IMG/VR virus record: IMGVR_UViG_3300013830_000002
Coordinates: 1 to 64,000 of that record
DNA from: a virus
Lineage: Duplodnaviria; Caudoviricetes
Strand: one strand, 5' to 3'
Length of the DNA stretch: 64,000 nt
Shown here: positions 18,023 to 48,672 of the stretch, one piece after another
Numbering within the stretch: position 1 is the stretch's first letter
Layout of the letters: every line of letters begins with the position of its first letter
Program-made: the position numbers and the translations under genes
Notes under the pieces: model-generated
What the model saw: only the letters and a program-made list of their open reading frames with translations
Told to the model about the DNA's origin: nothing
Database searches by the model: none

Positions 18023-18703
18023 ATGGAAGCAAGAAACATTAAAGTTATTCTCACTAGAAGTCAGCAAAGTGTTGTTATTAAAAGTGCAGCTACAACACTG
18101 AAGGAATTAAAGGCAGACCTTGACAAGGCCCATATCGATTATAGTGGTATGACTTTCCATGAAGGTCTTTCACATACTGACATGCGTGATGATAACGCAG
18201 TTCTTCCTACAAACCTGCCCTGGAAAGGACAGATAACAAACAATCTCGTATTTATGTTATCAGAACCAAGAAAGAAAATCAGAAATGGTGCTATTGCAAG
18301 TCGTTCTGAGGCTTATGCATTTATCAAGAAAAATAATCTTGGCGAGGCATTTGCAGCAAAGTACAATGTAAAGAACTACACCAATGGCAAGACTGCAGAT
18401 TTGATTGAATTCTGCAACATAACAGGTAAAAAGGCAGCTCCTGTAAAGAAGACTGTTCCTACAAAGAAAACTGCTGAAAAGAAAGTTGCTAATCAAAAGC
18501 CTGTGAATGCAACAAAGTCTGCTGCAAAACCTGCTAATACAGCAAAGCTTACAGAGAATAATCTTTTGCAGAATCTTGTGTCAGTGCTTATCAAGAAAGG
18601 CATCGTAACAAAGGATGAAGTTCAGACTGGTGAAACTACTCCCGTAACCAATGTAAGTTTCACAGATGCTGAATGCAAAGAAATGTTCAAGGGAATTAAC
18701 TAA
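18023..18703 (+). CDS. putative ubiquitin-like (beta-grasp) precursor protein
   Basis: About 89 aa N-domain with strand-strand-helix pattern (TTLKELK) ending LVFML...KKIRNG, then a tail; heads an operon with E2, JAB and E1. Confidence 0.6.
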   Translation: MEARNIKVILTRSQQSVVIKSAATTLKELKADLDKAHIDYSGMTFHEGLSHTDMRDDNAVLPTNLPWKGQITNNLVFMLSEPRKKIRNGAIASRSEAYAFIKKNNLGEAFAAKYNVKNYTNGKTADLIEFCNITGKKAAPVKKTVPTKKTAEKKVANQKPVNATKSAAKPANTAKLTENNLLQNLVSVLIKKGIVTKDEVQTGETTPVTNVSFTDAECKEMFKGIN

Positions 18704-18711
18704 TCACATTA

Positions 18712-18755
18712 AAGGGAGTGGAAGGTAGAAATTATCTTCTGCTCCCTTATTTTTT
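18712..18755 (+). terminator. terminator/attenuator hairpin between the Ubl and E2-like genes
   Basis: aagggagtggaaggta-gaaat-tatcttctgctccctt followed by a T run. Confidence 0.7.
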
Positions 18756-18786
18756 ATTTATTTACTTACTTTTCACTATTTACAAG

Positions 18787-20052
18787 ATGATAGTATTGAA
18801 AGATGCAATTGCACGAATTCATGATAAAGTCAAAGAATTAAGCTTTGGCAGTTGCAACATGGATAAAATGCAAAAGGCTGTTAATGTAATAACTGATTAT
18901 TTTGGAGAGGATAGAGTGGATTTCCAAGATAATGTAGAGGACTATATCAGGTCCTGTATTGATAATGAAATAGCTTGGATGCCTAACTTTATGAGCATTA
19001 ATTTGCTTAATTTCAACTCTGCAGTTCCTAATTCTGATTACAGGGTATCTAGGAATACTAAACTTGAGGAAGCTTTTCAACATGATGAATTCCTTGATTG
19101 GTTTGTTTCCAAAATAACCGTTGCTGCCTGTCAATCATTGCCTTTATATGCAATAATTATCAGATTCAATGATGTAATTGTCAGTAATGGTAAGGGTGAT
19201 AAGGCTCTTATTCAAGAAATTTATGTAAAAGTTCCATTAAAATATAATGGTAATCTGTATAGTGGTATGTGGTGGCTAAGGACTACATATAGTTATTATC
19301 ATTGGCGAAATAATTATGCCCACAGCCATCTGAGCAGAATTTCTACCAGACAAGCTCCAACGTGGAAAAACCCTTGCACTGGTGATGGTCCTATAAACCT
19401 TACAATGGATTCCTTGAGGACACACCCAACAGATGACCTATGGGCATTGTTCTGCTATGAACTTGAAGAGTGTATAAAGGTTGAAAGTCTTGCTGGAGGT
19501 CCCTATATCAGGATAGGTGAACTTTGTGAAGGAGAAGTTACTGTCTATTCGGATTTGGGCATAACAGAAGCTTTCCCTTGGGATAGTACAGTAGAAAAAG
19601 AATTGATTCAAAATGTGATTAATTCTGGAAAACTTGAGTTCAAATGGGAAAACGGTGCTTATTCGGTATGTAACAGTGTAGCTGACCTGATAACTATAGT
19701 GAGTACTGAATTCTTCAAAATATGTAAAGAGCATAGAGAAAATTCATCACTTCCAATGATTTCTGCATATAGAAGCGACTTCTGTAATGCAGTTATATCA
19801 GGTCAAAATATAAAGATAGTATCAGAGTGCAGTGAGCTTACTCATGCAGTAGACTTAAACAATACTGTATTGTTTGCATTCAAGGGTGCCCCTGTAAAAT
19901 TAAGGATTCTTGATGTGGACGATGTGAGCACTAAAAACACAAAGACGTTTCTTAAAGTGCCATACGTAGCATCCATTATTTCAAAAATAAACAACTTAGC
20001 AAATTATTATTATGGAAACAACAAAACAAGAGCCAAAATTAAGACTGCTTAA
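18787..20052 (+). CDS. putative prokaryotic E2-like conjugating enzyme domain protein
   Basis: YAHSHL...WKNPCTGDGPI (HxH followed by Cys), ESLAGGPY; operon context; ATG 18787 follows the hairpin. Confidence 0.6.
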   Translation: MIVLKDAIARIHDKVKELSFGSCNMDKMQKAVNVITDYFGEDRVDFQDNVEDYIRSCIDNEIAWMPNFMSINLLNFNSAVPNSDYRVSRNTKLEEAFQHDEFLDWFVSKITVAACQSLPLYAIIIRFNDVIVSNGKGDKALIQEIYVKVPLKYNGNLYSGMWWLRTTYSYYHWRNNYAHSHLSRISTRQAPTWKNPCTGDGPINLTMDSLRTHPTDDLWALFCYELEECIKVESLAGGPYIRIGELCEGEVTVYSDLGITEAFPWDSTVEKELIQNVINSGKLEFKWENGAYSVCNSVADLITIVSTEFFKICKEHRENSSLPMISAYRSDFCNAVISGQNIKIVSECSELTHAVDLNNTVLFAFKGAPVKLRILDVDDVSTKNTKTFLKVPYVASIISKINNLANYYYGNNKTRAKIKTA

Positions 20053-22397
20053 AAATGAAGACCAGAAATTCAAGCTTGTCATTCCAAAGGAAATGGAACA
20101 GAAAATCAGGATTGCCTGTGCCAGGCTTCCTGAGAATGAGTGGTCAGGTGTTTTGTTCTATAATGTAAAAGGCTCCTTTGAAAAAGGTACACTGAAAATA
20201 CTCTGCAGAGATTTCCTCGTTATGGACATAGGAAGTGCTGCCTATACCGAGTGGAGTACCAATGCAGATATTATCTCCTATATGTGCCAGGAAGACCTAA
20301 CAGATTGCCAGATGGGCCTGATTCATTCTCACGACAAAATGGCTAAACTAATTAAAGTAGCATAAATTTTGATAACATTTAGTTGTGTTTTCTTTAAAAA
20401 TTCGATATTATTAGCATAGATAAAAGTTTTAATTAAAATTTATTATAGTATGGTAAACATTAAAAATTATGCTGAGCAAATTAATACCTTACATGAATAG
20501 GGAAAATCTGCTCTGGAAATTTCTAAAATTTTAGGATTAAAGTATTCATAGCCTATTTATAATTACTTTAAGAAATAGGGATGGAAAAGACTATCACGAG
20601 ATTAGTATATTGCACGTCACTAGTATAAAATAAATAATTCTTTTTTTGAGGTTATAGATACTGAAGAAAAAGCTTATATTTTAGGATTTATATGTGCTGA
20701 TGGACATGTGGATGCTAAAGCTCATAGAATAGTAATTGCCATTTAGGAAAATGATGTAGAAATACTAGAAAAAATAAAAACTGCATTAAATTCATCACAT
20801 CCTATTGTAAAACATATTTAGAAAAAAAATCCGTATAAAAATTCCAGTAATAAGACATTATTTTAGTGTTCAGTATCTTTTAACGGTAAAAAATTAGTAG
20901 CTCCTCTTGTACAAATGGGAATAAGTGGTAAAAAAACTTATTCTTTAGATGGAAATATAATAAAATATATCCCAGATGAGTTAATGAGACATTTTCTTAG
21001 GGGTTATTTTGATGGGGATGGGTGTATAAGTTTTGATAAAAGGTATAAATCTGGACCTAAAAGTGTTATACATGTGGCTGGAAATTATGATTTTCTAAAT
21101 AATAGTTTCAATAAATATTTTCCTACTAAATGTACATTAAAATTATATAAAAAGAGTAAACAATGCTATGATTATACTATTTAGAATAAAAAAGAAGTAC
21201 TAAAATTTTTAGCTTTTTTATATAATGATGCTAAAATATATTTACAAAGAAAATACAACATCTATCAATATGCAATGTGGTCATTTAAAACTGAGTTAAT
21301 TGCTGGAAACTCCTACTTCATAGAACTTATGAAGGGACAATCAGCAGCCAATCCTTTGGTTAAATGCCTTAGGCAGGTTCAGAGACTAGCAGATGAAACT
21401 ATAAAGAATCCTTTTGAAGATTCTTCTATAGAATATAATTCTGCCACGAATGCTCAGCACTTAGATAACCTAAGTGAAGATATAGTCCGAACTATATAGT
21501 AATATATAGAAGTAAAGGATAAAGAGCCTTTATAACAACAAAATGGCATTTTTCAGTGGAACTGATTTAAGCACCCTTAGAGAAGAAGGAAATGACAGAA
21601 ACAATGTTGTCAGCCTGATTGTAAATAATGAAGGCAAATATGTTGCATCATTGACAAGAAAAATCCATGCTGAAGGTATCTGCAAGCAAACTTGCTCATA
21701 TCCTTTCTTCGGAGATGGGGATAGGTCTTTCAATGAATCCTTTGAGACTGAAGACAATTATGTTGAGTATTTTGACCTTGAAATAGTCAAACCTGTTCTA
21801 GAAGAAAGTCATAAGGATTTCAATGACAGGCTTTCATTACTTATAGCTGCCAAGAATAATCCAGCAAAACAGACTAAATTCGGCCCAAATGTAGTTGAGG
21901 TAGATGACCTTAACTCAGAATGGACACCAAAAACAAAATATGGTGACTATCCTATTGGGGATTATGGTACTGAGAAACCTGTAAGTACAACCCATATTAA
22001 ATACTCTTTAGATGACGAAGGGCTGAAGGATGTTACTGATTCCAAGGAATATAAAGAGCTTATTGAAAGATATGCTTTGAAACTTGTCAGTGGTTGGATT
22101 ATGGCTGAACCAAGTAAAAACCTGAATGCAGATTCATTTGCACAAAAGAATATGGTTGGGGCCTGTAAGAAAATGTTTGGCACTTCAACAGAGAAGGGGT
22201 CACCATTTTGGAATTGGGCATCATGTTATGTTGACTATATTATCAATGATACTGACGAGGATATACTCGATTTTATTGATGACTCTGACAAGGAAGCTGT
22301 GTTTGCTACAAGTCTACATGAAAGGCTTGAGAAAATTCCTTCACAAAATAACTATATTAAAACACTTATTGAAATAATAGAAGATTATGAGTATTGA
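20012..22397 (+). CDS. JAB/MPN (JAMM) metalloprotease split by a group I intron; exons 20012-20344 and 21546-22397
   Basis: EWSG; splicing gives HSH-DKMAAFF-SGTD, an exact HxH-x7-S-x2-D motif. Confidence 0.9.
20345..21545 (+). mobile_element. group I intron in the JAB protease gene
   Basis: P aattgctggaaa, Q aatcagcagc, R gttcagagacta, S aagatatagtcc; U|...G boundaries. Confidence 0.92.
20450..21502 (+). CDS. intron-encoded HTH + LAGLIDADG endonuclease (about 10 TAG)
   Basis: AYILGFICADG and FLRGYFDGDG in one frame with TAG read-through; the ORF runs through the ribozyme core. Confidence 0.85.
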
Positions 22398-23157
22398 TGA
22401 AATAGATTCAAACATTCAGGCTCTTGAAAATACAGAGTCTGTAAATCCAGAAACATCAAGATTCAGCAGTGCTGAATGGTTCAAGGTTGCCCAGAAACAA
22501 TCCATCTGTGTTTGTGGAGTAGGTGGTATAGGTTCATGGGCTGCATTCATGCTTTCAAGGCTTAACCCGAAGAAACTTATAATGATTGACCCTGATGTGG
22601 TTGAAGACCATAACCTTGGAGGCCAATTTTATTCATCAGATGATATTAGTCAGTATAAAGCTGATGCAATGGCTAAAATAATTCAGAAATTCAGTGGTTT
22701 CAAGAAGGTAGAATGTTTTCATAGTCTTGTAACGTCGGCAACAAAGGTTCCACCTGTTGTGCTCGGAGGATTTGACAACATGAAAGCAAGAAAGGCTCTC
22801 TATGAAGCATGGAAGGCAAACCTTCTAAGCCAGCCTGCTACTGTTGACAAGAAGAAATTCCTTCTTATTGATGGAAGGCTTTCAGCTGAGCAGCTTCAGG
22901 TGTTTTGCTTTACAGGAGCCGATGATTACTATATGGCAGAATATGAGAAAAACTGGCTCTTCTCTGATGATGAGGCAGAATCAACAGTCTGCTCATATAA
23001 GCAAACTTCGTATTGTGCAAATCTGATAGGCTCTTTGATGGCCAATCTTTTTGTTAATTGGTGTACTAATCAGTGTGATGGGCTTCTCATTGACAGGGCA
23101 TTACCTTTTATGACTGAATATGAGGCTTCACAAATGTTTCTAAGAGAACAAGTATGA
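22387..23157 (+). CDS. ThiF/E1-like ubiquitin-activating adenylyltransferase
   Basis: SRF, GVGGIGSW, DPDVVEDHNLGGQ, FDNMKAR, DGRL, candidate catalytic Cys in VCSYKQT. Confidence 0.9.
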   Translation: MSIDEIDSNIQALENTESVNPETSRFSSAEWFKVAQKQSICVCGVGGIGSWAAFMLSRLNPKKLIMIDPDVVEDHNLGGQFYSSDDISQYKADAMAKIIQKFSGFKKVECFHSLVTSATKVPPVVLGGFDNMKARKALYEAWKANLLSQPATVDKKKFLLIDGRLSAEQLQVFCFTGADDYYMAEYEKNWLFSDDEAESTVCSYKQTSYCANLIGSLMANLFVNWCTNQCDGLLIDRALPFMTEYEASQMFLREQV

Positions 23158-23831
23158 ACAGGGTAGGAATGAACATAGATGAATATGTATGTAGACTGTT
23201 TTCAAATCAGTACAGTGAGACACACAATATAGTCAGTAATGACAACAGAACACTTGGATTTCTTCATTTTTACCCACATAGGGGATGTATGTGGATTCCG
23301 CCAAGAATTCTTAATAGAGTTCCACTTACTAGCAATAATTCTGAAGAACTTCAACATGAGATAGTAGTGCCTGTAGTTACTAACAATATAAATGACGGAA
23401 AATCATTATGGTCAATAATAAGGAAACTGGATAATACGAGGGCATTCCTTCCCAACTTTAATATCTATACGTTTGATAGTATGGTATTCTCAGAAGACAG
23501 ACAGATTCTGAGTATGCCACTTGTGAAGGTAACTCGTGTAAAAACAAAGAGCACAAGGGATGACTCTGATATATATGTCCTGCATCTTTCATGCCCGACT
23601 ATTTGTTTCAACCAGACATTGTTTACTGATAATAAATACAAGGGTTATCGAAACTTTGTGGTGAATAAAGTGCTACCTTTATTGACAAAAAAGTTCTATG
23701 ATGAGCGTGTCAATATTCTTATTCGTTCAGACCTGAATGAGCTGATTACTTATGTTAAAGAACCTGAACCTGATGATGATATTGATACTGAGTGCATAAA
23801 GAACATAAAATACAATTTGAACATTGTCTGA
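23154..23831 (+). CDS. hypothetical protein
   Basis: ATGA-coupled to E1. Confidence 0.75.
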   Translation: MNRVGMNIDEYVCRLFSNQYSETHNIVSNDNRTLGFLHFYPHRGCMWIPPRILNRVPLTSNNSEELQHEIVVPVVTNNINDGKSLWSIIRKLDNTRAFLPNFNIYTFDSMVFSEDRQILSMPLVKVTRVKTKSTRDDSDIYVLHLSCPTICFNQTLFTDNKYKGYRNFVVNKVLPLLTKKFYDERVNILIRSDLNELITYVKEPEPDDDIDTECIKNIKYNLNIV

Positions 23832-23834
23832 AAT

Positions 23835-24500
23835 ATGACACAGAAAGAATTTTTTGGTGACTGGAGTCCTTACATAGATTTCCAGTCACTGAACAGAGCT
23901 CTTGTACATATTCAAAGAGAGGGTAATTTTCTTCCTTCAGCTGACAAGGTTTTTGAGGTATTCAAGGTATGCAAGCCTGATGACATAACAATGGTCTGGC
24001 TTGGGCAAGACCCTTATCCACAAAAAGACGTTGCCACAGGACTTGCATTTGCCAATAAAGCAAGCACTCCTGAAGACAGAATATCACCTTCACTGAATGT
24101 GCTGAAAGAAGCCATGATTAATTTTGAGATAAATCATGCAACTATTGTATTTGACGACAGTCTGATGCATCTTGCCAAGCAGGGAGTAATGCTGCTTAAC
24201 AGTTCATTGACTGTAAAGCCTTATTCTCCTGGCTCACATGCATTCTACTGGAGACCGTTCATGAGATTCTTTGTAAAGAAGTTCTCTGAAACTCATCCAG
24301 GAATGCCGTGGATTCTGTTTGGCAAACAAGCACAGAGCTTTGAAAAGGACATTAATCCGAATTGTGGAATTTTCAAAGCTGAACACCCTGCTTCACTTGC
24401 AAGAAAGCATGAAAAGCTTCCCTATACCCTCTTTGCTAATGTCAATAAATATCTTTTTGACAGAAATGGTATAAGGATAAGATGGTATGATGAACTTTAA
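23835..24500 (+). CDS. ung: uracil-DNA glycosylase (family 1)
   Basis: GQDPYP, ATGLAF, LLN, HPASL. Confidence 0.92.
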   Translation: MTQKEFFGDWSPYIDFQSLNRALVHIQREGNFLPSADKVFEVFKVCKPDDITMVWLGQDPYPQKDVATGLAFANKASTPEDRISPSLNVLKEAMINFEINHATIVFDDSLMHLAKQGVMLLNSSLTVKPYSPGSHAFYWRPFMRFFVKKFSETHPGMPWILFGKQAQSFEKDINPNCGIFKAEHPASLARKHEKLPYTLFANVNKYLFDRNGIRIRWYDEL

Positions 24501-24512
24501 AGTTTTTCTGAC

Positions 24513-25574
24513 ATGGCATTTGCCGATTTAGGATTAAAGATTCCTGAAGCTGACTATCATGCAAGGAGTGAAATCTCCTATAGCCAGCTTCAGAATTTTG
24601 ACAGGGAGGGATTTGATTATCTTGACCATAAGGATGATGGTCTTGATACCCCCTATTTGACATTTGGTTCAATGGTTGACTGCCTGATTACTCAACCAGA
24701 AGGAACCTTTGACAAGGAATTTGTAGCTTGTGAAATTACTATTACAGATTCTATAGCAGCAATCATAAAAGCTATTGCTGACAGCACTGATGACACAGTA
24801 ACCCAGTTTGCCCTTGTAGAAGATGATGTTATTCTGCAGGCAGCAAAAGATGCAAACTGGTACAATAACTGGAAGGATGCTACAAGAGTAAGCAAAATCA
24901 GGGAACAGGGAAGTGAGTATTTCAATTTCCTGAAGAAAAATAGTAATAAAACTGTTGTATCCAAGGAGGATATGGACGATGCAAAAGCATGTGCTGATGC
25001 TTTGAAAAATGACTCAATCACAGGAGCTATATTTGCAACTACTACAAATGCTAATATTGAACAGGTTTATCAACTTCAGCTTCTTGGAAAGTTCAATTAC
25101 ACACAGGCTACGGATGGAGTGGCTGAGGATGTATCAATTCCTGTTAAAGGAATGTTAGATTTTGTAGTAGTGGACAATACTAACAAAACTATTCAGCCTT
25201 ATGACTTGAAAACTTCAAAAAGTGTATACACATTTGAAGACAGTTTCTATAAATACAGATATTACCTGCAGGCAGAAATGTATACGGAATTGCTTAAACA
25301 AGCAATAGCCACAACTGAACAATACAAAGATTATACAATACTTCCTTACAAGTTTATTGTTGTTGACAGAGTTCATAAGAAACCAGTAGTATTTCTATGG
25401 AATACAACGTCCAATATAAAGGATAAATATGGCCAAGTTCGTAAGGCCTGCAAGAAGCTTGCATTTGATTTTCATAATGCCCTTACAGGAGCCAACCTTC
25501 CTTATGAATGGGAGCATGAAATAAAAGATGGAAAGAATTCTGCTGTTACAATACAGAATTACTACACTGCTTAA
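24513..25574 (+). CDS. PD-(D/E)XK exonuclease (RecE/DUF3799-like)
   Basis: ISYSQL, FGSMVD, KGMLD...YDLKT, YYLQAEMY. Confidence 0.82.
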   Translation: MAFADLGLKIPEADYHARSEISYSQLQNFDREGFDYLDHKDDGLDTPYLTFGSMVDCLITQPEGTFDKEFVACEITITDSIAAIIKAIADSTDDTVTQFALVEDDVILQAAKDANWYNNWKDATRVSKIREQGSEYFNFLKKNSNKTVVSKEDMDDAKACADALKNDSITGAIFATTTNANIEQVYQLQLLGKFNYTQATDGVAEDVSIPVKGMLDFVVVDNTNKTIQPYDLKTSKSVYTFEDSFYKYRYYLQAEMYTELLKQAIATTEQYKDYTILPYKFIVVDRVHKKPVVFLWNTTSNIKDKYGQVRKACKKLAFDFHNALTGANLPYEWEHEIKDGKNSAVTIQNYYTA

Positions 25575-25585
25575 ATAACATACTG

Positions 25586-26080
25586 ATGAAAATTAAAGTA
25601 AAACTTTTAGAGGCAGGAGCACTTCCTGAAATTATTAAAAAGGGTGACTGGATTGACCTTCGTTCAAGATTCGACTATAATGGCCAGGCTCCAAAAACAG
25701 CCCTCGATGGAAGTATTGTCTTTGATACATAGATAATCAAGCTTGGGGTAGCCATGAAACTGCCAAAAGGGTTTGAGGCTATTGTAGTATCACGAAGTGG
25801 AACTTTCAAGCATTATGGATGTATCCAGACTAATGCCTCTGGAGTAATTGACAATACTTACTCAGGAAATGATGATGAGTGGGGTTATCCTGCTACTTTT
25901 CTGAAAGCAGGACATATATCTGCTGGAGACAGAGTCTGCCAGTTCAGAATTCAGCTGAGCCAGAAAGCTACTATGTGGCAAAAACTAAAATGGCTGTTCA
26001 GCAAAAAGATAGAAATTGTAGCAGTGGATAAATTAGATAAGGTAAACCGTGGTGGTTTTGGTAAATCAGGTAAGAAATAA
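25586..26080 (+). CDS. dut: dUTPase (1 TAG)
   Basis: GDWIDL (motif 1) upstream of the TAG; SRSG, GVIDNTY, QFRI, RGGFGKSG. Confidence 0.9.
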
Positions 26081-26082
26081 TT

Positions 26083-26490
26083 ATGGCTTTTATCAAATTC
26101 AATAATAAAATAGACTCTTTAAAACTAGTAATAGTAACGTTATTTGCAGATAAAAAACCTTTCAATTTCGTAATTGATACTGGAAGTAATATATCTCACA
26201 TAAGTATTCCTTCTGCGAAGAAACTTCCAAATGCTATATCTATTGCTGCATAGGATAAACAGGTAGGAGGGATAAGTGGCTCTGTAAATGCAACAGGAAA
26301 AATAAAGCAGACATTTGTCAATGATGTATTCAAGTTCACTCATGAGTTTTTTGTAACTAATCTAGACAGTTTAGTGAGAGATATTTACGAATGTTCTAGA
26401 ATTAAAGTTGACGGTATTTTAGGCACTGATTTCCTGATTAAGTACAGATGTCATTTAGATTTCAAGAAAAACCGACTTCATCTTGGATAA
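26083..26490 (+). CDS. retropepsin-like aspartic protease (1 TAG; absent from the ORF track)
   Basis: FVIDTGS and DGILGTDFL motifs in one frame. Confidence 0.85.
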
Positions 26491-26493
26491 TTT

Positions 26494-29400
26494 ATGATAT
26501 ATCTTGTTACTAAAAATCAGGAATTGTTTGAAAATTCTAACTATAAAATTATAACTCCCGAGGAAAGTCTAAAGATGCTTAGTAGTTTGAAAGTTATAGG
26601 ATTTGATACTGAAACTGAAGGGCTTGATTGCCATACAAAAGCTCTTCTTTCTTTACAGTTAGGATGCTATGATTGGCAAGTTGTAGTAGATTGCAAAACT
26701 ATCAATCCTCTGATTTATAAGGAGTTATTTGAATCTTCTGAGCATCTTTTTCTTGGGTGGAACTTGAAATTCGATACCAAATTTCTTTACAAATATAAAA
26801 TAGTTCCAAAGAATCTGTATGATGGATTTCTGGCAGAAAAGTTGTTATGGCTTGGCTATCCGTCAGGACTTCATTCACTAAGTCTAAAACATGCAGCTGA
26901 AACGTATATAGGATACGAAATGGATAAAACAGTTCGAGGTCAGATTATTTGGAAGGGGCTATGTGAGGAAACTATTATTTATGCTGCAAATGATGTTAAA
27001 TATCTTGAAAAAATTATTATTAAGCAAAGGGAGGCCCTTAGAGAAAAGGGATTATTAACAGCGATTGACGTTGAAAATAGGTTTTTGTTGCCTCTTTCCT
27101 ATATGGAGTATTGTGGCATTAAAGTTGATGTCAAGAAATGGAAAGAAAAGATGGCTAAAGACAATGCCGGGGAAAAAGCAGCTAAGAAAGCTTGCGATGA
27201 ATGGCTTTTGAAAGCAGTCAATGAAGGAATTACTGATGAAATAATGTATGTGATTTATCAAGGAAACACTGTTCCCCTTGATAGTATTGACATGTCCAAG
27301 ATGACTCCTTCTGAAATAGAAAACATCAAAAGTAGGGCATATCCAATAAAATCGAAGGTAGATTTATCTGAATTTAGAAAATACATTACTATAGACAGAC
27401 AAGGAACGCTGTTTGATGATTTTGGTAATGTAAATGAAAATCCCTATGATTTAACTCCAAAAATATCAATTAATTGGAACAGTGCAAAACAGCTTATTCC
27501 ACTGTTTAAAAAGTTTGGAGTAAATGTTGAAGTAGATGATAAAGAAAAGGGTGGAAAGAAAGACAGTATTGATGCTAAAGTGCTTAAACCACAAAAAGCA
27601 AAATGTTCCTTGATTCCACTTTACCTTGATTACAGAGAAGCTGTAAAAGTGACCTCTACTTATGGAGAAAATTTTCTTAAGCAAATTAATCCTGTCAGTG
27701 GAAGAATACATACTAATTACACCTAGTTAGGTGCTGATACAACTAGGATTACTTCAGGCGGTAAGGACAAAGCTGCAAAAGTTGAATATATTAATTTATT
27801 AAATCTTCCATCAGATGAAGAAACCAGGTCATGCTTTGTGGCTGAACCTGGAAACTCTTGGATTTCAATTGATTACTCAGGGCAAGAAACTTATTTAATG
27901 GCTTCCATTGCCAATGATAAAGCAATTATTAAGGAATTGACCGAAGGAAGCGGAGATAAGAGATTGTTTCCCTATATAGTAATATATAGTAAAAAACTGG
28001 GAAAAATCGGTAGAAAAATTGAAAAATTTTAATTATGAAATTTGCGGAATGTTTACAAAAATTTAATTTATAGCAAGCGGTTGAAATGATGAGAAAAGGC
28101 TACAAATAGGCAGAAATAGGAAAAGTATTTGAAATAGAAGCTCAAAGAGTGAGTGATTGTTTTAAATACTATAATGTACATTTTGATAAAAGAGGGATGT
28201 ATATCAATGACACATATTTTGATGTAATTAACACAGAAGAAAAAGCTTATTTGCTCGGATTTCTTGTGGCCGATGGCTGCTGTAGATTAGAAAAAAGAAA
28301 GAATAAAGTTACAAAACGTATAGCTTTTAATAATACTATTGATGATAAAGAGGCTATAGAAGCATTACATAATAATATATGCCCTAATGCTGCATTAACA
28401 GTTAAAAAGTACACATTTAATAGAAGGAAAACTCCTCAGTATACATTATAGTGGACATCTCCCTATATGTTTGATGTCCTACAAGAAAAATATAATATAG
28501 GGCCTCATAAAACTTTGGATAAAGATTTCTTTATTCCAGAAAATGTTATACCTGAGACCTTATGGAGACATTTTATTAGAGGGTTCTTTGACGGAGACGG
28601 GCATGTTGGTAGCTGTACAATTGAATTTGTATTTACTTCTAAACCATTTATGTAGTAGATAATGCACTTCTTTAGTAATTTTCATTATAGAACTTATCAT
28701 ATACAGGGAAAAACCACTGATTACTGGAAAGTAGTAATTCCTGCTGAAGATAAGATTAAAAAAGTTATACGAGACTTCTTTTATAAAGATGCTACTCTAT
28801 ATTTAAAGAGAAAATATGAAGCTTTCTATACCGAGATAACCTATGGCTTGAGTAATAGAGTCATAGAGATTGTAGAGCATAGGGCTGAATAAATATAATG
28901 CCCCACGAGTCCCCAGCTCCTGCTAGTCAGGATGAAAATTTATGCCGAGCTACAGAGAGAGTTCAAGTATCTGTAGAACTATCAGATAAAAAACTGATAG
29001 GATAACAAAACTGATTCATAGTTTAACTGCCTATATGAGTTACCCACAAATTCCACGAGATACTCCTATTAAGGATATAAAGAAATTGTTTCATAATTTG
29101 CGTCAAGAGGCCAAAGGGATTGAGTTCGCAATTAATTACGGCGGAGACGCAAATACAATTTCAAGAAATAAAGGAATTCCTCTTGATGAGGCAAAGAAAG
29201 TATATAATAACTATATGTCAGGTTTTAAAGGACTTAAGGCATATCAGGAATTTAGAAGAAAAGATTGGTTTAATAAAGGATATATTTTACTGAGCCCCTT
29301 AACTGGTCATAAAGCTTTTATTTATGATTATGAGGAGCTCAAGAAACTAAAAGCAAGTTTTTCAGAACCAGGATTTTGGGATTATTATAGGGAAATGAAG

Positions 29401-34926: not shown

Positions 34927-34939
34927 ATATCAATAAGTT

Positions 34940-36517: not shown

Positions 36518-36529
36518 TTTCTGCCAGAA

Positions 36530-37847: not shown

Positions 37848-37851
37848 TTAG

Positions 37852-38536: not shown

Positions 38537-38539
38537 ATT

Positions 38540-38833
38540 ATGTTCTACATTAATCAAAAGAAAGTAAAGGAAGCAATGGAAAAGCTTCCTGATTTGAAGA
38601 AAACTGCAGAAATGATGTCAAGCCCTGATTATAAGGAAAGATTCAAGGCTGAATACTATCAGTTGTACATCAGATACTACAAACTTCTTTCGATGGTGCT
38701 TAGCTGGGATGCAGGAACTCTTCAATTTACACCTACATGCCCACGTTCAACTTATGACGAACAGCTAAAGTATATGGAAGGTTATATGAATGTACTTGAA
38801 GCAAGGGCAAAAATGGAGAATATAGACCTGTAA
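38540..38833 (+). CDS. crAss001_48-like helical protein
   Basis: DYKERFKAEYYQL...QLKYMEGYMNVLEARA. Confidence 0.75.
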   Translation: MFYINQKKVKEAMEKLPDLKKTAEMMSSPDYKERFKAEYYQLYIRYYKLLSMVLSWDAGTLQFTPTCPRSTYDEQLKYMEGYMNVLEARAKMENIDL

Positions 38834-38850
38834 ATATAAAAAAAGAAACA

Positions 38851-40028: not shown

Positions 40029-40078
40029 ATATGATATGCAATTTTATAAATTAACATGGTTATTTAAAGGAATGCAAT

Positions 40079-40267
40079 ATGGAAACAACAAATAAGTCAC
40101 ATAGAAACAATATATTCTGGATATTTGCTATGGTAGTGGTAGTTGCTTTTGCCTCTGTAAAAATAGCAGAAATCAAGTCTGGTGAAGATACCGGAATTCA
40201 ATATCAGCAGATATACCAGAAGCTCAACACTATTGAAAATAAAATTGACACTTTAAGATTTGACTGA
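40079..40267 (+). CDS. small membrane protein
   Basis: TM helix. Confidence 0.6.
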   Translation: METTNKSHRNNIFWIFAMVVVVAFASVKIAEIKSGEDTGIQYQQIYQKLNTIENKIDTLRFD

Positions 40268-40275
40268 TTAATAAC

Positions 40276-40578
40276 ATGAAGAAACTAGTATTGATAATTG
40301 TATTTACAATTCTATTATCTGCAGTTTTTATAGGTGCTATATTATATGTGGACTATAAAATCAAGGACAAGGGAAATACATATCTTATAGAATATGCAGT
40401 TTATTACCCTGATGGGCCACAAGTATTCAGTGATTATTCAAAAGGGAAAATAGACTATTACAGTGAAAGAGGTTCCAATAAACTGCTCTATATAGGCAAG
40501 AAATCAGGTGATTTGGAAGGAATTTCCACAACTTGCCCTGTAAAGATAATCAAATACAGGAAAATAACAAATAATTAA
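40276..40578 (+). CDS. membrane-anchored hypothetical protein
   Basis: N-terminal TM helix. Confidence 0.65.
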   Translation: MKKLVLIIVFTILLSAVFIGAILYVDYKIKDKGNTYLIEYAVYYPDGPQVFSDYSKGKIDYYSERGSNKLLYIGKKSGDLEGISTTCPVKIIKYRKITNN

Positions 40579-40586
40579 ATGCTGAT

Positions 40587-40700
40587 ATGACATTTGCAGA
40601 AGCAATTAAAGCTGTCTATGAAAGCAAAAAAGTAGTCCTCCCAGAATGAAAGGGCTACTGGTTTTTAGGTAAAGAAAGGATTGGAAAACAATTTAACTAA
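40587..40700 (+). pseudogene. truncated DUF2829/Tad2-like remnant with in-frame TGA
   Basis: MTFAEAIKAVYESKKVVLPE*KGYWF. Confidence 0.45.
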
Positions 40701-40718
40701 TAAAAAAAAATAACGATT

Positions 40719-41222
40719 ATGAAAAAGTTTTTGATTTTAATGATGTGCTTATTGTCACTTACATTCATGACTTCTTGTAAAGAGCATTTTTCTGATGGTG
40801 AAAGAGTTGGTACAGTGGTAAAATTCTCTAAAGCAGGAGTTATCTGGGATTCATGGGATGGCGATTTAAATCTTACTGCCACAGGAATGAACACGTCAGG
40901 AGAGCCATTTGCATTCTCTTTTGATAATGATAGAAATGACCAGGACTCACTGATTAATCTGTTGGTTGATGCTCAGAGATATGGCTGGAAAGTAAAAATT
41001 ATCTATCATCAGGTTTGAGGATTGAAAAATATCTGCAAGAATCGTGGTGAAAGTGATTACTTTGTTGATGATGTTGAAGTGCTTGACAAGAACTTTGCCA
41101 AACCTCTTGGTGGAATAAGTTCTAAGTCAGAACCTGTCACAAAAGGAAGAGTTGTTGATACTGTTTGGGTAGTTATTGATAAAAGCCAGCTCCCTAAAAA
41201 AGGTAATCATGAATGCAAATGA
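40719..41222 (+). CDS. lipoprotein interrupted by an in-frame TGA (41016-41018)
   Basis: Lipobox MTSC; both track fragments are in the same frame. Confidence 0.65.
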
Positions 41223-41347
41223 TAATATCCTTGATTTAAGAAGGCCCCTTGAGACAAATGACCCTAATTTAATTAGAGCTACTATAATTGTAGACAAGTG
41301 GGCAAACAGATATTTCAGATACTGCTAAGATTTTTAACAAAAATAAC

Positions 41348-42178
41348 ATGAAATTACTTCATCAATCAATTGAATTACTTCCTCAAGAACAAAATCTTGA
41401 GGAAGTTTACAAGAAAATAGAGCTTGTTGGAAGAACCTGTTATCAATCAGAATCTCATATAGGAGAAAAGCCTGCAAAGGATTTTGTTGACAGGATGATT
41501 AAGGCTCAGCATTTCTCTCCAGTAGAACATGGTACAATTTATCTTACTATACCTTATGGCTCAGAGGAAGTTAGTTGGTATGATAAGAACCCGTTTTCTA
41601 GAGTAACTTACTCTAAGGTAATAGATACTGGAGAAAAAAGAGCTCATATAACTACTAATCTCAGAGTTATTGCCGAATCTGGTCGATGGCTAGATTTAAA
41701 AAGGTACAGTTGTGCATGTTCTGAATTTCACATGAGAAGAGTTACTGTAAAGTGCATTACAAACAGACAGATTGCCAATGAGCTTGTAAGACACAGAGCC
41801 TTTTCTTTTATGCAAGAAAGTACCCGTTTCTGTAACTACTCTAAAGAAAAATTTGGTAATCATCTTACATTCATTATTCCTTCAAATATTCAAACTGACG
41901 ATGATATAAATCAAGAAATTTTAAATGCTTGGAAAAATACTGAGATGTCTTATCTGAAAGTAACTAGTGAATTTCATGCAAGACCTCAAGATGCAGCTCA
42001 GATTCTTCCATTAGGATTAAAAACCACAATTTATATGACTGGTTTCTTAGATGATTCAGGATGGAAGAATTTTATGAGTCTTAGATATTTTGAGAGTACT
42101 GGTCCAGTCCATCCTCTGATGAAGGAATTAAGCACTCTTATTTATAACAAAATGAAAAAAGAAGGATGGATTTCTTAA
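41348..42178 (+). CDS. thyX: flavin-dependent thymidylate synthase
   Basis: HFSPVEH, ELVRHRAFSFMQESTRFC. Confidence 0.92.
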   Translation: MKLLHQSIELLPQEQNLEEVYKKIELVGRTCYQSESHIGEKPAKDFVDRMIKAQHFSPVEHGTIYLTIPYGSEEVSWYDKNPFSRVTYSKVIDTGEKRAHITTNLRVIAESGRWLDLKRYSCACSEFHMRRVTVKCITNRQIANELVRHRAFSFMQESTRFCNYSKEKFGNHLTFIIPSNIQTDDDINQEILNAWKNTEMSYLKVTSEFHARPQDAAQILPLGLKTTIYMTGFLDDSGWKNFMSLRYFESTGPVHPLMKELSTLIYNKMKKEGWIS

Positions 42179-42543
42179 GGACTCTTCTTATTGATTTTCC
42201 AATCTTGCTGATAGTAGTGCTTGTCACAGGTGCTATTAGGTCAAAATTGGAAGGAAATTTTATTTGGTAATGGATAAGAATTATATTTTAGATTTGTATA
42301 AAAGTGGCTTGAATGTTGAAGACATTGCAGACGAAACAGGATATGAGGAAACTAAAATCCTGGAAGTAATAGATGAGTACGAAGGATTGGATTAAATAAA
42401 AGCAAATGAAAGATTGTTCATACTTTGTTATCCTTTCAATTTAATGGCCTTTCATCAGGAATTTCCTGATGTAATGGTTCATAAGAATTCAATGGGAACA
42501 TTACTTTATATGCCAGATTTAAATAATAATAAGAAAGAAAGAA

Positions 42544-43416
42544 ATGAGTAAAAAATTTGATTGCTGTTTTTGGACTGACGGGTCATACAGGCCTTCTAAA
42601 AATACCGGTGGAATAGGGGTTATTGAAGTCATTGATGGTAATGTAGTCTGGAAGCACTCTGAAGGATTTACAAATACTACCAATAACAGAATGGAAATGA
42701 GGGCATTGATAGTTGCTCTTGAACAAATCACCGAGCACATGAACTCAGTGATTATCTATTCTGATTCGCAGTATTGTCTTGGCTGTATCAACAAAAACTG
42801 GAAACGGGAGAAAAATACTGAAATGTGGCATGAGTTTGATGCTGCTCTGCATAGAGCACATCAGAAATGCAAATATATATCATTCAGGTATACCAAAGGA
42901 CATGATACAGATGAGTTCAATAACCTTGTTGACAAACTTGCAACTGAAGCAAGTGCTACTGTGACAGAGACTGCAGAAGTAGACAATGTAAACAAACTTG
43001 CAGTAATCCTGTGCAGGGGTATTCAAGGCTCAGGCAAGTCAACATGGGCAAAGAACTATTGCAGTGAGCATCCCGGCACAATAAGAGTAAATAGGGATGA
43101 TATAAGGGCAATGTTCAGTCAGAAATGGTCAAAAGAATTTGAGGAAATTGTCAAGCATACCGAGCTTCAGGCTTTACAGAAAGCTCTGTCTGTAGGTTAT
43201 AGTGTAGTAATCGATGATGTCTCGAACATGAGCTCATACACTATAAAGAACATTAAGTCTATTGTTCCTGAAGGAGTGAAAATCATCTATCAGGATTTCT
43301 TTGATATTTCTCTTGAAGAGTGTATTGAAAGGGATTCAAAAAGAGAACATCCAATAGGTGAGGAAATAATCAGGAATACTTACGAAAGGTATAAGGATAT
43401 TATTGATAAAAAATGA
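42544..43416 (+). CDS. RNase HI - polynucleotide kinase (AAA_33) fusion
   Basis: TDGS, TNNRMEM, SDSQY, KGH..NNLVDKLA; then GIQGSGKSTW, NRDDIR, ECIERD. Confidence 0.88.
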   Translation: MSKKFDCCFWTDGSYRPSKNTGGIGVIEVIDGNVVWKHSEGFTNTTNNRMEMRALIVALEQITEHMNSVIIYSDSQYCLGCINKNWKREKNTEMWHEFDAALHRAHQKCKYISFRYTKGHDTDEFNNLVDKLATEASATVTETAEVDNVNKLAVILCRGIQGSGKSTWAKNYCSEHPGTIRVNRDDIRAMFSQKWSKEFEEIVKHTELQALQKALSVGYSVVIDDVSNMSSYTIKNIKSIVPEGVKIIYQDFFDISLEECIERDSKREHPIGEEIIRNTYERYKDIIDKK

Positions 43417-43598
43417 TAGAACAGGTAACATTGTATGCTATTAAAACTCCACAAGGCTGGGCAACTCCTAATCATAGAGACACTAACCGTATTCAAAATG
43501 CCCAGTTTTATGGAAGGATTGGTACTGCTAAAACACGTTCAGAAGTTAAATATGGACAGGGAAAAGTAGTACCAATAAAGGCAACTTTAGAATACTAA
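43413..43598 (+). CDS. hypothetical protein
   Basis: ATGA-coupled ORF. Confidence 0.6.
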   Translation: MIEQVTLYAIKTPQGWATPNHRDTNRIQNAQFYGRIGTAKTRSEVKYGQGKVVPIKATLEY

Positions 43599-43601
43599 AA
43601 T

Positions 43602-44762
43602 ATGCAATTTGAAAAAGCATGTAAAAGACTCATCATCAGGGATGCCTTTTGGGGTATCCTGATGCTGGGGCTTAATAAGGAACATACAACAAAAGTAGAA
43701 ACACTTGCAGTTGCTAAGGAAGGAATTGGCTTAAAGCTTCTTATCAATGATGATTTCTGGAACTCATTAAATGATGCAGAACAAACAGCAATTCTGTTAC
43801 ACGAATTACATCATATTTGCTTTGGGCACATGCTTATGAGTCCAGATTTTCCTGACCATGAAAAGTTCAATTTAGCTTGTGATGCAGAAGTCAATCAATA
43901 TATTGAAGGACTTCCTCAAAACGATGGTCATGTTGATATTAAGCTACTTGGTCTGCCTGAAAAACAAGGAGCAAAATGGTATTATGAACATTGGCCAAGC
44001 AAACCAAAAGCCAGTGGTGATGGAAGTGATTCAAGTGGAAGTAGTGACGGTGAATTTTCACCCAACTTGATTGATGACCACTCTGCTTGGAAAGAATTTG
44101 AAAGAGCTTCTGATTCTCAAAAAGAGTTAATTAAAGCTCAAGTAGAAGGAATCATCAAACAAGCTGCTGAACAGACTCAAAAGTCAAGAGGAAAAATACC
44201 TGCTTATCTTAAAGAATATATTGATAATCTGCTTAAAGAAAGACCACGAATATACAACTGGAAAGCACAGTTCAGAAGAATGCTTGGAACTGAAATAGAC
44301 ACTACTATCAGAAGAACTCATAAAAGAGAGTCAAAAAGATTTGATTTTTCACCAGGAATTAAATTCAATCGAAAGATAAGTATTCTAGTAGCAATTGATA
44401 CTTCTGGCAGTGTTTCAGATGAAGAACTCTCAGAGTTTTTCAGCGAGATAATGTATATCAAAAGAGCAGGTGCAAAGGTAACTGTCTTAGAGTTTGATGC
44501 TGATGTTCATAGCGTTTGGGAATTCAAAGGATTTCAAAATATAAAAATTACAGGCAGAGGAGGAACTGATTTTGAACCTCCTGTTGATTGGTATAGACAA
44601 CATAGAAAAGATTATACTATGTTTGTAATGTTTACTGATGGTTATGCTCCAATAAACAATTTAAATGTTCCAAATAACAACATGACATGGGTTATAACTT
44701 CTTCTGGAGAAAGGAAGGATTATCCAGGGAAAGTAATCTATATTCCTGCTAAAGAAAATTAA
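43602..44762 (+). CDS. metallopeptidase + vWA domain protein (DUF2201-like)
   Basis: HELHH, AIDTSGSV (MIDAS), GRGGTDF, FTDGY. Confidence 0.9.
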   Translation: MQFEKACKRLIIRDAFWGILMLGLNKEHTTKVETLAVAKEGIGLKLLINDDFWNSLNDAEQTAILLHELHHICFGHMLMSPDFPDHEKFNLACDAEVNQYIEGLPQNDGHVDIKLLGLPEKQGAKWYYEHWPSKPKASGDGSDSSGSSDGEFSPNLIDDHSAWKEFERASDSQKELIKAQVEGIIKQAAEQTQKSRGKIPAYLKEYIDNLLKERPRIYNWKAQFRRMLGTEIDTTIRRTHKRESKRFDFSPGIKFNRKISILVAIDTSGSVSDEELSEFFSEIMYIKRAGAKVTVLEFDADVHSVWEFKGFQNIKITGRGGTDFEPPVDWYRQHRKDYTMFVMFTDGYAPINNLNVPNNNMTWVITSSGERKDYPGKVIYIPAKEN

Positions 44763-44792
44763 GATGTTTAATTATAATTTTTACAACAAAAA

Positions 44793-47488
44793 ATGAAAGA
44801 ATTAACATTAGGAGAATTCTCTAAAATCTTAAGTTACATGATTGATAACAATCACAGACTTATTGATGCTGGGGATACCCCAATTGCTGTTAATATTGAA
44901 GGTGAAGCTGGTATAGGTAAAACTTCCGTAGTTGAGGCAGTAGCAAGAGAAAAGAAAATGACATTCGTAAAAGTCTGTTTGAGTCAGATAGAAGAGACCG
45001 CTGACCTTGTTGGATTTCCATACAAGGAATATCTTATTAAACTTAACGGAGAAGAGAAATGGATTTCTGCTGATTTATTAAAGGACATGAATTGTGACTT
45101 TGAAACTACAAATAAATCACGAATGTCTTATGCAGTTCCTTCTTGGGTTCCAACTGAAGAAAATCCTAATGGAACTATGCTGGTTTTGGATGATTACTCG
45201 CGTGCTAGTTCTATGCTATTACAAGCTGTGATGGAGCTTATTAATACTGGTTCATATATTTCATGGAAGCTACCAAAGTACACTAATATAGTCCTCACTT
45301 CAAATCCTGATTCGGGAGAATACTCAGTTCAGACCCTTGATAATGCTCAGAAGTCTTAAAATTTAAAATGTAATAAAATCTAGAAAAGGGACCAAATAAT
45401 TGCTGTTAGTACTTGTTATTTTTAAAATAAATCGGTATTATTATCATAGATAAATTATATAAATTCTAATAATTATATTATGATAATAGACAAAATATTA
45501 AATTATAAACAAGGTATATATGGCTTATTTATAGCTAACCATATTTATGTAGGTAGTTCCATTAATTTAGGGGCAAGATTACGTAGTCATAGAAATTATC
45601 TACTACACAAGAAACATGATAACCAGTACTTACAGAGAGCAGTTAATAAGTATGGACTTAACATGCTGACATATAAAATTCTGGAATTTTGTCCAGGAAT
45701 ATCCATTATGGATTTAAGGAAAAGAGAACTTTACTACATTAATTTATACCATGCCGACCTGAATCTAAAGAAGGACCCTACTACAGAACAAAATTGTCTT
45801 ACCACAAGTAGGACAGTTTACTAGTATGACTAGTATGGGCACCTAGTATAGAAATGGGTATCCATAAGTGAGGCCGCTAGACATTTTAAAGTTAATGTAA
45901 GTAATATTGTATGTTGTTGTTCTAAACCAAAACGATAGCAGTGGTGCAAAGGATTTTTGTGGTCTTATAAATATCCATATCCATTTAAACTTCCTTAGCT
46001 TATTTATTTATTTAATTTAGATGGAAAATTTGCTGGAGAATATACATCTACTTCACAAATAGCTGAAAAAGTATTTTCTGATATAGATAGAAAAACTGTC
46101 TTATCTCAACTTAAGAAAAAAATAGACTCTGGTATACCATATAAAGAGTATTATCTTTCTACCTCAAAAACATTCTCGGTAACAAAAGATATGTTAAAAC
46201 GGCATCCAGTTAAACAGCTATAGATGATTATTTAGATACCAATCCGACAATCTATATTTATAATAAATAGAGTGAGCTTATAGGTATATCTAAATTTAAT
46301 GATTTAAAACATTCTCATATAATCAGAATTAGAATAAAAAATGGTACTTCATATAAATACTCTCTAGTTAAGCGTGAACCAGGAACATTTCAATCCCCTA
46401 CTAGGAGATTTAAATGTAAAGTTCAGGATAGATTTACTGGAGAAATTTTTATATATGATACAACGGCAGAAGCTGCAGTAGTTCTCTTTAATGATAAAAA
46501 ATAGTTAGGTAATATCAGAAAACATGTTAAATTACATACTCCTTTTAGAGGATATTATTTTTGGGACTTATAAAATTCTGTGAATTGCTGGAACATCCTT
46601 AGAGCCTCTACAGTACATTAATTTTAATTAAAAAACTTTGAAAAGTTAGAGGATTGGACAATCAGCAGCCAAGTCTATCAGGGATGGTAGAAAGGTTCAA
46701 CGCATAATACACACGGTCTAGTTCAGACTATGAAGTAACACGAGTGCAGAACCCTATTTTATAGGTGATGATATATGCTGAACTGTATAGAAATATACAG
46801 AAATTGAGATAAAAACCTCAATGATAACATAATGCGACTTGTGACCTTTAATGGTAAGTTCGATATTCAACAGTGGGCTAAATGGGCAGAGAATTTTGGT
46901 ATTGATGGTAGGGCAATTAACTTTGCTCTCTATTATAACACAGAATTATTTGAACCTAAGAATAATGTAGTTGTTGCAAATGCAAGAAATTACACTACTT
47001 TCTGTAGGGCAATTGCTGGACTTCCAAAATGGAATGATGAGAAGACTCTTGAAATAATCCTTGAAATTGCTTCAGGATGCTTTCTTGACAAAGACCAAGT
47101 AGTTGGAACTCTCTTCACTCAGTTTATCAATAACAATCTTGATAAACTTATTTCACCAGAGAGGCTTCTTAATGGTGAATGGGAAGTAGTAAAGCAGGAA
47201 ATTCTTAACTGTGTTTATGCTAATGGTAATACAAGCTCCTATAATTATAAGGCAAATATTGCAAATATTCTTGGAACTCGTTTCATGAATTATTGCAATA
47301 AGTATCTTGGCACAGACAAAGCTGACTCAAAGAAAGTTGCAGACAGGATTGATAAGTTTGTTACTTCTGATATTCAGCTTTTCAGTCAGGATATTATGTA
47401 CAATATAGTCAAGACTATATGTAGCAATCATACAAGTCTTACAAACAGATGGTTTTTAAATAAGAACATTAGACAAATAGCAATCTGA
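44793..47488 (+). CDS. MoxR-like AAA+ ATPase split by a group I intron; exons 44793-45356 and 46835-47488
   Basis: GEAGIGKT, LDDYSRA, TSNP; spliced LDNAQKS|RLV restores the Arg finger. Confidence 0.88.
45357..46834 (+). mobile_element. group I intron in MoxR ATPase
   Basis: P aattgctggaa, Q aatcagcagcc, R gttcaacgcata, S gatgatatatgc; ends in G. Confidence 0.88.
45480..46573 (+). CDS. intron-encoded GIY-YIG/NUMOD1 endonuclease, many TAG, apparent frameshift near 46210
   Basis: GIY...YVGSS..L..R; VY(TAG)YD...SISEAARH. Confidence 0.78.
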
Positions 47489-48672
47489 TGCAACACAACA
47501 AACTTAGTCTTTATGGATATGAAGGATATTAGATAATACCCTTCACTGGTTATTTCTTTAACAAGGACAACTGGAATCGTAGTTCATATCGTACAAAATT
47601 CATTTAGGATTATGGGATAGTCTGGGCAGGAAGAAAGTCCTGTCCGTTTATCCTCAGAACAGAAATTTCCAAAGCTATCATAGAGGCTTTAACCTCTTAT
47701 AAGGATAAAGAAGAAAAATTTATGAAGCTTGATGCTGTAAAGGGTAAAGAGTATATCCCAAAACAGGGAGATACTCTTTATTTTGACAAAAAATGTAAAA
47801 TTCCAAGAATAAAAATTGAGGGAATCTGGAATCGGACTACTAAAATAGAAAAAGCTGATATTGTAGTTATTCCCAAGATAGAGGGCTATCAGAAATTAAG
47901 TGACTATCTTATTTTCTGTGATGAAAATGCAAAGGTTTTATATCTCGGAAATGTTGACTCGAAGCTAAGTGACCACCTATCAGAAGGAATGACAATACAG
48001 CAGCTCCACAGTATTGCATTTCTTGGAAGTTCCTTTGCAGGCAACAGGGCTGCTGAAGACGAAAATTATCAAAGAGCAAAGGCATCCAAACTTATCTATA
48101 AAGGTGACTTGGTTGCTTTTCCTGAAGGCAACACTTATGCTTATGATATAATTGATGGTATTATACCTAAATTTATCTTTGAAAATAAGCTGATTTCTCT
48201 AATAGACCGGCCTGATGAAAAATTTGACGCAGAAGCTGTTGATGGAATAATCTCATTACTGGAAAGTAAGGATGATGAGTCTGTAAAAATGGGAATGAGA
48301 ACTTTGGCCAATATGGATTATACTCACTATATCAGTATTGCAAGATATATTTTGCATAGAACTGAGCATAACTGGAATAACCATAAGCCTTTCAATAGTG
48401 CTGCTAATTTTATGCTTGACAGCATCTACAAAGGAACCAGGTCAACAACACCTTTCTCTGATGTTACAAAGGAAGAGTTTGAGTTATGTAAGCCTATTAT
48501 TGAATCAATAATGAAAGGTGAGCTTAGGGATACTGTTAGTTATCTTTGTGACAGTACAAATTTAAAGCTGGATTTTACATACGATGTGAAGGTCAGCTAT
48601 CCAGAAAATAAGCCTGATAAGTCAGGATTCTCTGATGAAGATGTAAAGGAAATGTTTGAAGGAGTGGAGTAA
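47488..48672 (+). CDS. hypothetical protein (2 TAG) downstream of MoxR
   Basis: TGATG-coupled start is in frame with the 47722 ORF. Confidence 0.75.

Follow-up and report, generated by a model that had tools for sequence, protein, structure and literature searches.

Docking peptides at the C-termini of unrelated phage proteins are a known kind of element. In phage T4 the DNA polymerase (gp43) and the late sigma factor gp55 have a short acidic-hydrophobic C-terminal peptide in common, by which both attach to a single hub, the gp45 clamp, and the acidic aromatic tails that SSB and the T7 proteins gp2.5 and gp4 carry on flexible linkers are shared docking elements of the replisome. In the eukaryotic ubiquitin-ribosomal protein fusions an N-terminal ubiquitin-like protein (Ubl) is freed from a functional C-terminal protein by cleavage after Gly, and vWA-MoxR systems with a third associated protein exist as well (Pfam DUF2201/AAA_5). 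In bacteria, the BilABCD operon encodes a Ubl conjugation system in which BilA, the Ubl, is cleaved at Gly97/Ala98 by BilC, a JAB peptidase (Chambers et al., bioRxiv 10.1101/2023.09.26.559546). Here we describe a short C-terminal tail shared by two proteins of a crAss-like phage, namely a homologue of crAss001 gp79, which is read as a Ubl precursor, and a protein here called X, encoded next to a MoxR-like ATPase. Both genes lie in the 64,000-nucleotide stretch of DNA analysed (the window), which is the first 64 kb of the 166,778-bp virus record IMGVR_UViG_3300013830_000002. The replication genes of the window match those of crAss-like phages (Crassvirales), crAss001 among them.

The gp79 homologue (18023..18703, + strand) is 226 amino acids (aa) long and its tail comprises aa 212-226 (18656..18700, +), with the core F-T-D-A-E-C-K-E-M-F followed by K-G-I-N and a TAA stop codon (18701-18703). 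Protein X (47488..48672, +; 394 aa) ends in aa 380-394 (48625..48669, +) with the core F-S-D-E-D-V-K-E-M-F, then E-G-V-E and a TAA stop (48670-48672). The preliminary description of this DNA had noticed the common ending at these places and at the same distance from both C-termini, and both points are confirmed, the M-F pair being followed by four residues in each protein. The two proteins were also rightly called otherwise unrelated: BLASTP aligns the 13-residue tail only, hhalign gives a probability of 0.4%, and the similarity is confined to the last 13-15 residues. When the six-frame translation of the whole 166,778 bp was scanned, the strict motif was found just twice. The observation is confirmed as real and significant.

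Among 5,995 pairs of C-termini of the open reading frames (ORFs) in the window, aligned from the C-terminus and scored with BLOSUM62, the two tails score 44 and the runner-up 25. With a position-specific scoring matrix (PSSM) trained on gp79 tails of other phages only, the X tail scores 14.5; at this level, shuffled residues of the 195-gene proteome are expected to give 0.05 windows per proteome, and far fewer still in a C-terminal position. Among natural ORFs that do not belong to the gp79 family, no C-terminus scores higher than 6.7 (~1,530 non-gp79 ORFs among 1,602 distinct natural ORFs). The match of the tails is, judged by these scores, far beyond chance. At the DNA level the tails are 58% identical and their third codon positions agree in 6 of 16 cases, which looks random, and a DNA repeat or a recent gene conversion was ruled out as their source on these grounds; the likeness is one of protein sequence alone. 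In addition, the X tail is as near to foreign gp79 tails as to that of its own phage. Co-evolution of the two tails within this genome was therefore ruled out, and the X tail is to be regarded as an instance of a family-wide motif.

Homologues of the 226-aa protein are the gp79 genes of 45 crAss-like phage records (tblastn over the beta-grasp and helical domain, 40-52% identity, E 3e-38 to 1e-28), and 143 homologous loci were found in IMG/VR. In 72 distinct IMG/VR genes and three GenBank phages the C-terminus follows the consensus [SP]-[YF]-[ST]-D-[DA]-E-[IVL]-[DN]-x-M-F, with 3-7 further residues after it; in the crAss001 group the motif is M-S-[KR]-[SA]-E-I-N-K-M-F, and the window protein has Cys at the [IVL] position of [FY]-[ST]-D-x-E-[IVL]-x-x-M-F. 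M221 and F222 do not vary in the alignment, and the conservation of S214 and of E217 exceeds 90%, the mean conservation being 0.75 in the tail as against 0.32-0.45 in the preceding linker. In 43 sequence clusters with 82-93% identity to the protein of the window, both indels and substitutions occur in the linker (proteins of 216-232 aa), and the 13-residue tail core is unchanged apart from one K-to-R replacement. The peptide ending this floppy linker is, to judge from the alignments, under strong purifying selection, and it is the signature C-terminus of the Crassvirales gp79 family. A lack of conservation among homologues, which would have spoken against a docking tag, does not apply to the Ubl-precursor family, in which the tail is near-invariant.

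The 50%-clustered library contains 221 representatives of the phage family of which protein X is a member, and in this family only relatives that are at least 90% identical carry a tail of the gp79 type. All members read of the corresponding 106-member cluster (at least 90% identity) keep G-F-S-D-E-[DE]-[VI]-K-[EG]-M-F-E-G, and the residues just before it vary. Relatives at 30-41% identity have other acidic-hydrophobic tails, and more distant members have no acidic tail. Five representatives forming one clade (P0011-P0014, P0017) have [DE]-[LI]-D-F-S-F-[AIV]-[NH] in common, preceded by a Cys-Pro-Asp-Cys-Pro box. Because acidic-hydrophobic tails recur in several clades and one form is conserved, the C-terminal tails of the X family look functional but interchangeable, and the gp79-type tail of X is, as far as its distribution tells, specific to this phage lineage.

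The motif reads as a hydrophobic staple, an S/T-x-x-E capping box and an amphipathic turn ending in M-F, often with a Gly cap. Alone, it is predicted to form a self-capped helix of two turns, in which F/Y, I/V, M and F make up a single hydrophobic face flanked by acidic residues; tethered docking helices usually have this form. In the AlphaFold2 (AF2) models both tails are helical, at aa 215-221 of the gp79 homologue and at aa 383-390 of X, where the per-residue confidence (predicted local distance difference test, pLDDT) falls from 68 to 52; the helix follows a disordered linker in the former and ~8 exposed residues in the latter. This differs from SSB and T7 gp2.5 and gp4, in which the aromatic residue stands at the extreme C-terminus, whereas here 3-7 residues follow M-F in all tails and the tail is predicted to be helical.

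We infer, with a probability of about 0.5, that the tail is a selectively maintained short linear motif which acts as a docking tag and binds a partner common to both proteins. The tail would then be a tethered docking peptide, the hydrophobic face of which inserts into a groove of one partner protein. The gp79 product and X would be recruited to the same site of this partner, or compete for it. In this lineage, a copy of the gp79 motif is carried by the third protein of the DUF2201(vWA)-MoxR operon. A docking tag had already been proposed in the preliminary description, and with the conservation seen in the gp79 family this part of the proposal remains reasonable. The suggested link to vWA/MoxR, whether as the shared partner or in general, is not supported: four genomes with a preserved gp79 tail (crAss001, cr128_1, bajarodcaudo virus 1 and a fourth complete crAss genome) have neither DUF2201 nor AAA_5. 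Therefore, the partner must occur wherever gp79 does, and the candidates are one of the Ubl-operon enzymes (JAB, E1 or E2-like), another core crAss protein or a host hub, e.g., the sliding clamp.

Several observations weigh against a docking tag with a common partner. An X lineage of 85% identity (two sequences, P0005 and P0292, from six contigs; 379 aa) ends right before the tail, and because of this X is, on the sequence evidence, able to do without it; with the different tails of the 30-41% relatives, conservation among homologues thus fails in the second family. A search for further bearers of the motif found none besides gp79 in the genomes of crAss001, cr128_1 and bajarodcaudo virus 1, so the sequences give no sign of a multi-client hub outside this lineage. 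X has an internal F-S-D...E-E-F helix start, and much of the motif appears to be generic helix-capping grammar, which would make look-alikes easier to reach by convergence. Furthermore, the gp79 tail (pLDDT ~75, near the conserved helices 178-202) might, according to the model, pack in cis.

The last two points raise an appreciable, if minor, chance that the tail is a cis element which packs against the protein that bears it, be it as a lid, as an autoinhibitory helix or within a small helical domain, and that the likeness is a convergent capped mini-helix with no common partner. Hydrophobic staple, capping box and Gly C-cap are indeed a grammar that any helix may use, the gp79 helices 178-202 have conserved Leu/Ala on one face and share a fairly high pLDDT with the tail, and the X tail lies only ~8 residues past the folded body of a protein with a similar helix start inside; that look-alikes can arise is seen from a small membrane protein encoded near the left end of the window (see below). 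However, the identity runs past the capping box to K-E-M-F-x-G-[VI] at an equal offset from the stop, and among ~1,530 natural ORFs no C-terminus scores above 6.7. The two host folds are unrelated, so that one lid sequence for two surfaces is unlikely, and the pLDDT of the X tail drops to 52-68. It would be scarcely credible to regard the likeness as a functionless coincidence: the motif is short and has just two bearers in the genome, but the pair statistics and the purifying selection speak against it, and conservation disfavours it. A tag for a peptidase or unfoldase, marking both proteins for processing or turnover by JAB, the DUF2201 metallopeptidase or a host AAA+ protease, is quite improbable. 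It would fit the invariant Gly-Ala junction of gp79, which resembles the BilC cleavage site of BilA, and the presence of a predicted metallopeptidase in both operons (JAB by annotation and a DUF2201_N match), and AAA+ machines usually pick their substrates by C-terminal tags. But ~125 residues, including the linker with its varying length, separate the tail from the junction, nothing like this junction is present in X, and DUF2201 is absent where gp79 keeps its tail.

A docking peptide could also be a clamp-binding one, i.e., a PIP (PCNA-interacting peptide)-like or T4-like motif by which X and the C-terminal product of gp79 would be anchored at the replication fork through the beta clamp of the host, and we consider this unlikely. 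A domain, a flexible linker and a C-terminal hydrophobic motif make up the architecture of a clamp client. T4 DNA polymerase ends in ...S-L-D-F-L-F-G and T4 gp55 in ...S-L-D-F-L-Y-E-A-N-D, so a similar [SE]-[LI]-D-x-x-[FY] pattern stands near the C-terminus, and the X clade ending in [DE]-[LI]-D-F-S-F is strikingly similar to both; the gp79 tails have E-I-D-x-M-F and the gene is a neighbour of the primase gene within the replication module. D-M-F is likewise the ending of two other sequences, namely the tail of the RB69 polymerase and the beta-binding site that lies inside E. coli Pol III alpha. On the other hand, the beta-clamp N domain (PF00712) and the gp45-type clamp (PF02916) are absent from this genome and from four crAss genomes, and a clamp reading therefore requires the clamp of the host. 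The leading Gln of the bacterial clamp motif is missing, the tails (E-I-D-x-M-F, and E-L-D-F-S-F in the X clade) match the clamp consensus Q-L-[SD]-L-F / S-L-D-F-L-[FY] only partially, and the likeness comes down to 3-5 residues. No other replication protein in the four genomes scanned carries the motif. The tails described here resemble those of T4 gp43 and gp55 in that a single phage has one short acidic-hydrophobic ending on proteins with no relation to each other; they differ in that the phage encodes no clamp, there is one tail bearer per genome outside this lineage and binding is putative.

The gp79 homologue, identified by tblastn homology, synteny, its AF2 model and fold matches, comprises a Ubl beta-grasp (aa 1-89), the Gly89-Ala90 junction, a helical domain (94-137), a linker (138-176), helices at 178-202 and the tail. 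The AF2 model, made with 40 homologues, has a confident beta-grasp at aa 4-80 (pLDDT 84-93), a low-confidence loop at aa 84-88, three helices in the domain at aa 94-137, a disordered linker and two helices at aa 178-202. In Foldseek the beta-grasp matches ubiquitin, SUMO, NEDD8 and DIX domains (template modelling score to target 0.55-0.73). K84, K85, I86 and G89 are invariant in the 40-sequence alignment and Ala is the consensus at position 90 (K-K-I-x-x-G, then A); Gly89-Ala90 is a putative JAB processing site (18287..18292, +) which adjoins the pLDDT dip, in the low-pLDDT loop. Owing to the beta-grasp fold, these invariant residues with the following Ala and the precedent of the BilC cut of BilA, "Ubl precursor" is a fair reading of the protein. 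The piece predicted to be released would be a protein of ~135 residues with the tail at the end of its variable linker.

In crAss001, cr128_1 and bajarodcaudo virus 1, gp79 lies between the primase gene and genes for a hypothetical protein, a metalloprotease-domain protein and a ThiF/E1 protein, and the gene order in the window is the same, with the primase at 17010-18014. The homologue of crAss001 gp78 (18718..20052, +) is proposed to be E2-like from synteny and has weak phrog_15310 matches only. The E1-like adenylating enzyme of the ThiF family (22387..23157, +) matches PF00899 (7.9e-20) and the PADLOC models E1-E2 (Cap2; 4.4e-14) and BilD (1.3e-7). No Pfam, NCBIfam or PADLOC match was obtained for the E2-like protein or the two JAB pieces, and the JAB assignment rests on the metalloprotease annotation of the homologue crAss001 gp77. 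Within the JAB gene lies a LAGLIDADG endonuclease ORF that splits it (window 20012-22397). Directly upstream of the primase, the homologue of crAss001 Gp81 (16087-17010) ends in an acidic-aromatic ...D-D-N-P-F-F-Q-K; this ending is reminiscent of the tails of SSB type, and it represents another tail code within this module.

Similarly to BilABCD (10.1101/2023.09.26.559546), the components are ordered Ubl, putative E2-like protein, putative JAB and E1, the phage E1 matches ThiF, Cap2 and BilD models, and G89-A90 of gp79 corresponds to the Gly/Ala cut. Unlike BilA, which loses one residue, gp79 would release ~135 residues with a helical domain and the conserved tail, and the system is phage-encoded and situated in a replication module. 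As in the ubiquitin-ribosomal protein fusions, the Ubl is N-terminal to a C-terminal protein, although here the C-terminal product is non-ribosomal and the cleavage putative.

Protein X was described as a MoxR-operon protein, correctly so, given that the order DUF2201, AAA_5, X with overlapping stop and start codons is conserved in every relative with a readable neighbourhood (L117-L124). The first gene of the module (43602..44762, +) encodes a DUF2201 protein, a putative metallopeptidase with a vWA-like domain (PF09967, 1.5e-19; PF13203, 5.4e-14). The gene of the MoxR-like AAA_5 ATPase (44793-47488) is split by an intron-like insert of ~1.5 kb with a GIY-YIG/NUMOD1 endonuclease ORF (45480-46307) that contains eight TAGs. 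Exon 1 (44793..45359, +) corresponds to residues 1-188 of an intact homologue (66% identity; L121) and exon 2 (46832..47488, +) to residues 189-400 (64% identity), its stop overlapping the start of X. The same MoxR gene is split in two IMG/VR loci (L117, L119). The start of X at 47488 holds only if the in-frame TAGs at 47530-47532 and 47605-47607 are read through as sense, and not otherwise; relatives at 96% and 85% identity have the same start, with lengths of 394 and 379 aa, and Gln at the position of the first TAG, and Tyr or Ser is found at that of the second.

The AF2 model of X is confident (pLDDT 88.6) and has an alpha/beta fold that is phage-specific. A HEAT/ARM-like stretch was found at aa 240-321 (Z ~6, VIA-align), the HEAT-like leads from Atlas are below 0.9, and the BFVD matches are uncharacterised podovirus and crAss-like proteins only. 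X has no Pfam, PHROG, NCBIfam or PADLOC match, and Foldseek against the PDB gave nothing. As in vWA-MoxR systems, the genes of a vWA-like protein and a MoxR-like AAA+ ATPase are followed by a conserved third one, that of X, to which they are coupled in translation; unlike in these, the fold of X is phage-specific without named relatives and its tail differs from clade to clade. In relatives, X is followed by a ThyX-like gene (PF02511 in L121, 4129-5037); the gene in this position in the window (48672-49481) has no Pfam match and a weak PHROG match, and a clear ThyX is encoded at 41288-42178.

TAG is evidently read as sense in this phage, because reading it as Gln closes many gaps between ORFs, e.g., at 13349-14335, 20369-21502, 45480-46307, 54294-55169 and 58464-63071 (1,535 aa). 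In the replication module, the DnaB-like helicase and Sak4-like genes also have LAGLIDADG domains, as fusions or as insertions (9679-10752; 13349-14335), and a sigma-factor-like gene is found at 12404-13348 (phrog_351, 1.3e-46).

A weaker copy of the motif had been seen at the N-terminus of a small membrane protein (1375), where M-T-D-A-E-I-D-A-M-L (1399..1428, +) has a PSSM score of 17.0. This claim did not stand up: the N-terminal extension is present only in relatives that are at least 81% identical, mostly as T-N-A-E-I-D-N-L-L with PSSM scores below zero, and the widespread membrane-protein family to which the protein belongs is without it. We treat the extension as a capped helix that chances to resemble the motif and place it outside the system. 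A back-translated K-E-M-F-x-G pattern gave 16 matches in IMG/VR, which proved to be internal and due to chance and were rejected, as was a simple degenerate pattern for finding bearers, which was no commoner than its reversed control. Outside the window, a 615-aa protein (126029-127876 of the genome, - strand; L128) has S-S-D-Y-E-I-A-V-M-F 70 residues from its end (PSSM 12.5) and no family match. The tail recalls the D-E-I-D-D stretch of Pup; a Pfam scan of 30-residue tails with E up to 10 returned nothing, and no Pup-like match.

A literature search found no paper mentioning crAss001 gp79 or a ubiquitin-like system of Crassvirales, and this motif on the putatively released half of a phage Ubl precursor appears to be undescribed in the searchable literature. 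The crAss-like phages are among the most abundant human gut viruses, and their Ubl, E2-like, JAB and E1 genes are without a known role; crAss001 can be cultivated together with Bacteroides intestinalis. The tail could even be a phage "address" bringing the Ubl precursor, or its C-terminal product, and a MoxR AAA+/vWA adaptor to one site. This is a long shot, but if it were true, a ubiquitin-like cascade would be coupled to an AAA+ remodeller inside a bacteriophage, as in Pup-Mpa or ubiquitin-p97, and its target might be the host sliding clamp or the replisome. The second bearer shows that another protein scaffold is able to carry the tag, and it is a hint that a protein of the MoxR module may go where gp79 goes. 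In the gp79 family, a 10-residue tail that is invariant throughout would offer a direct experimental handle on the partner, and hence on the process in which the Ubl system takes part.

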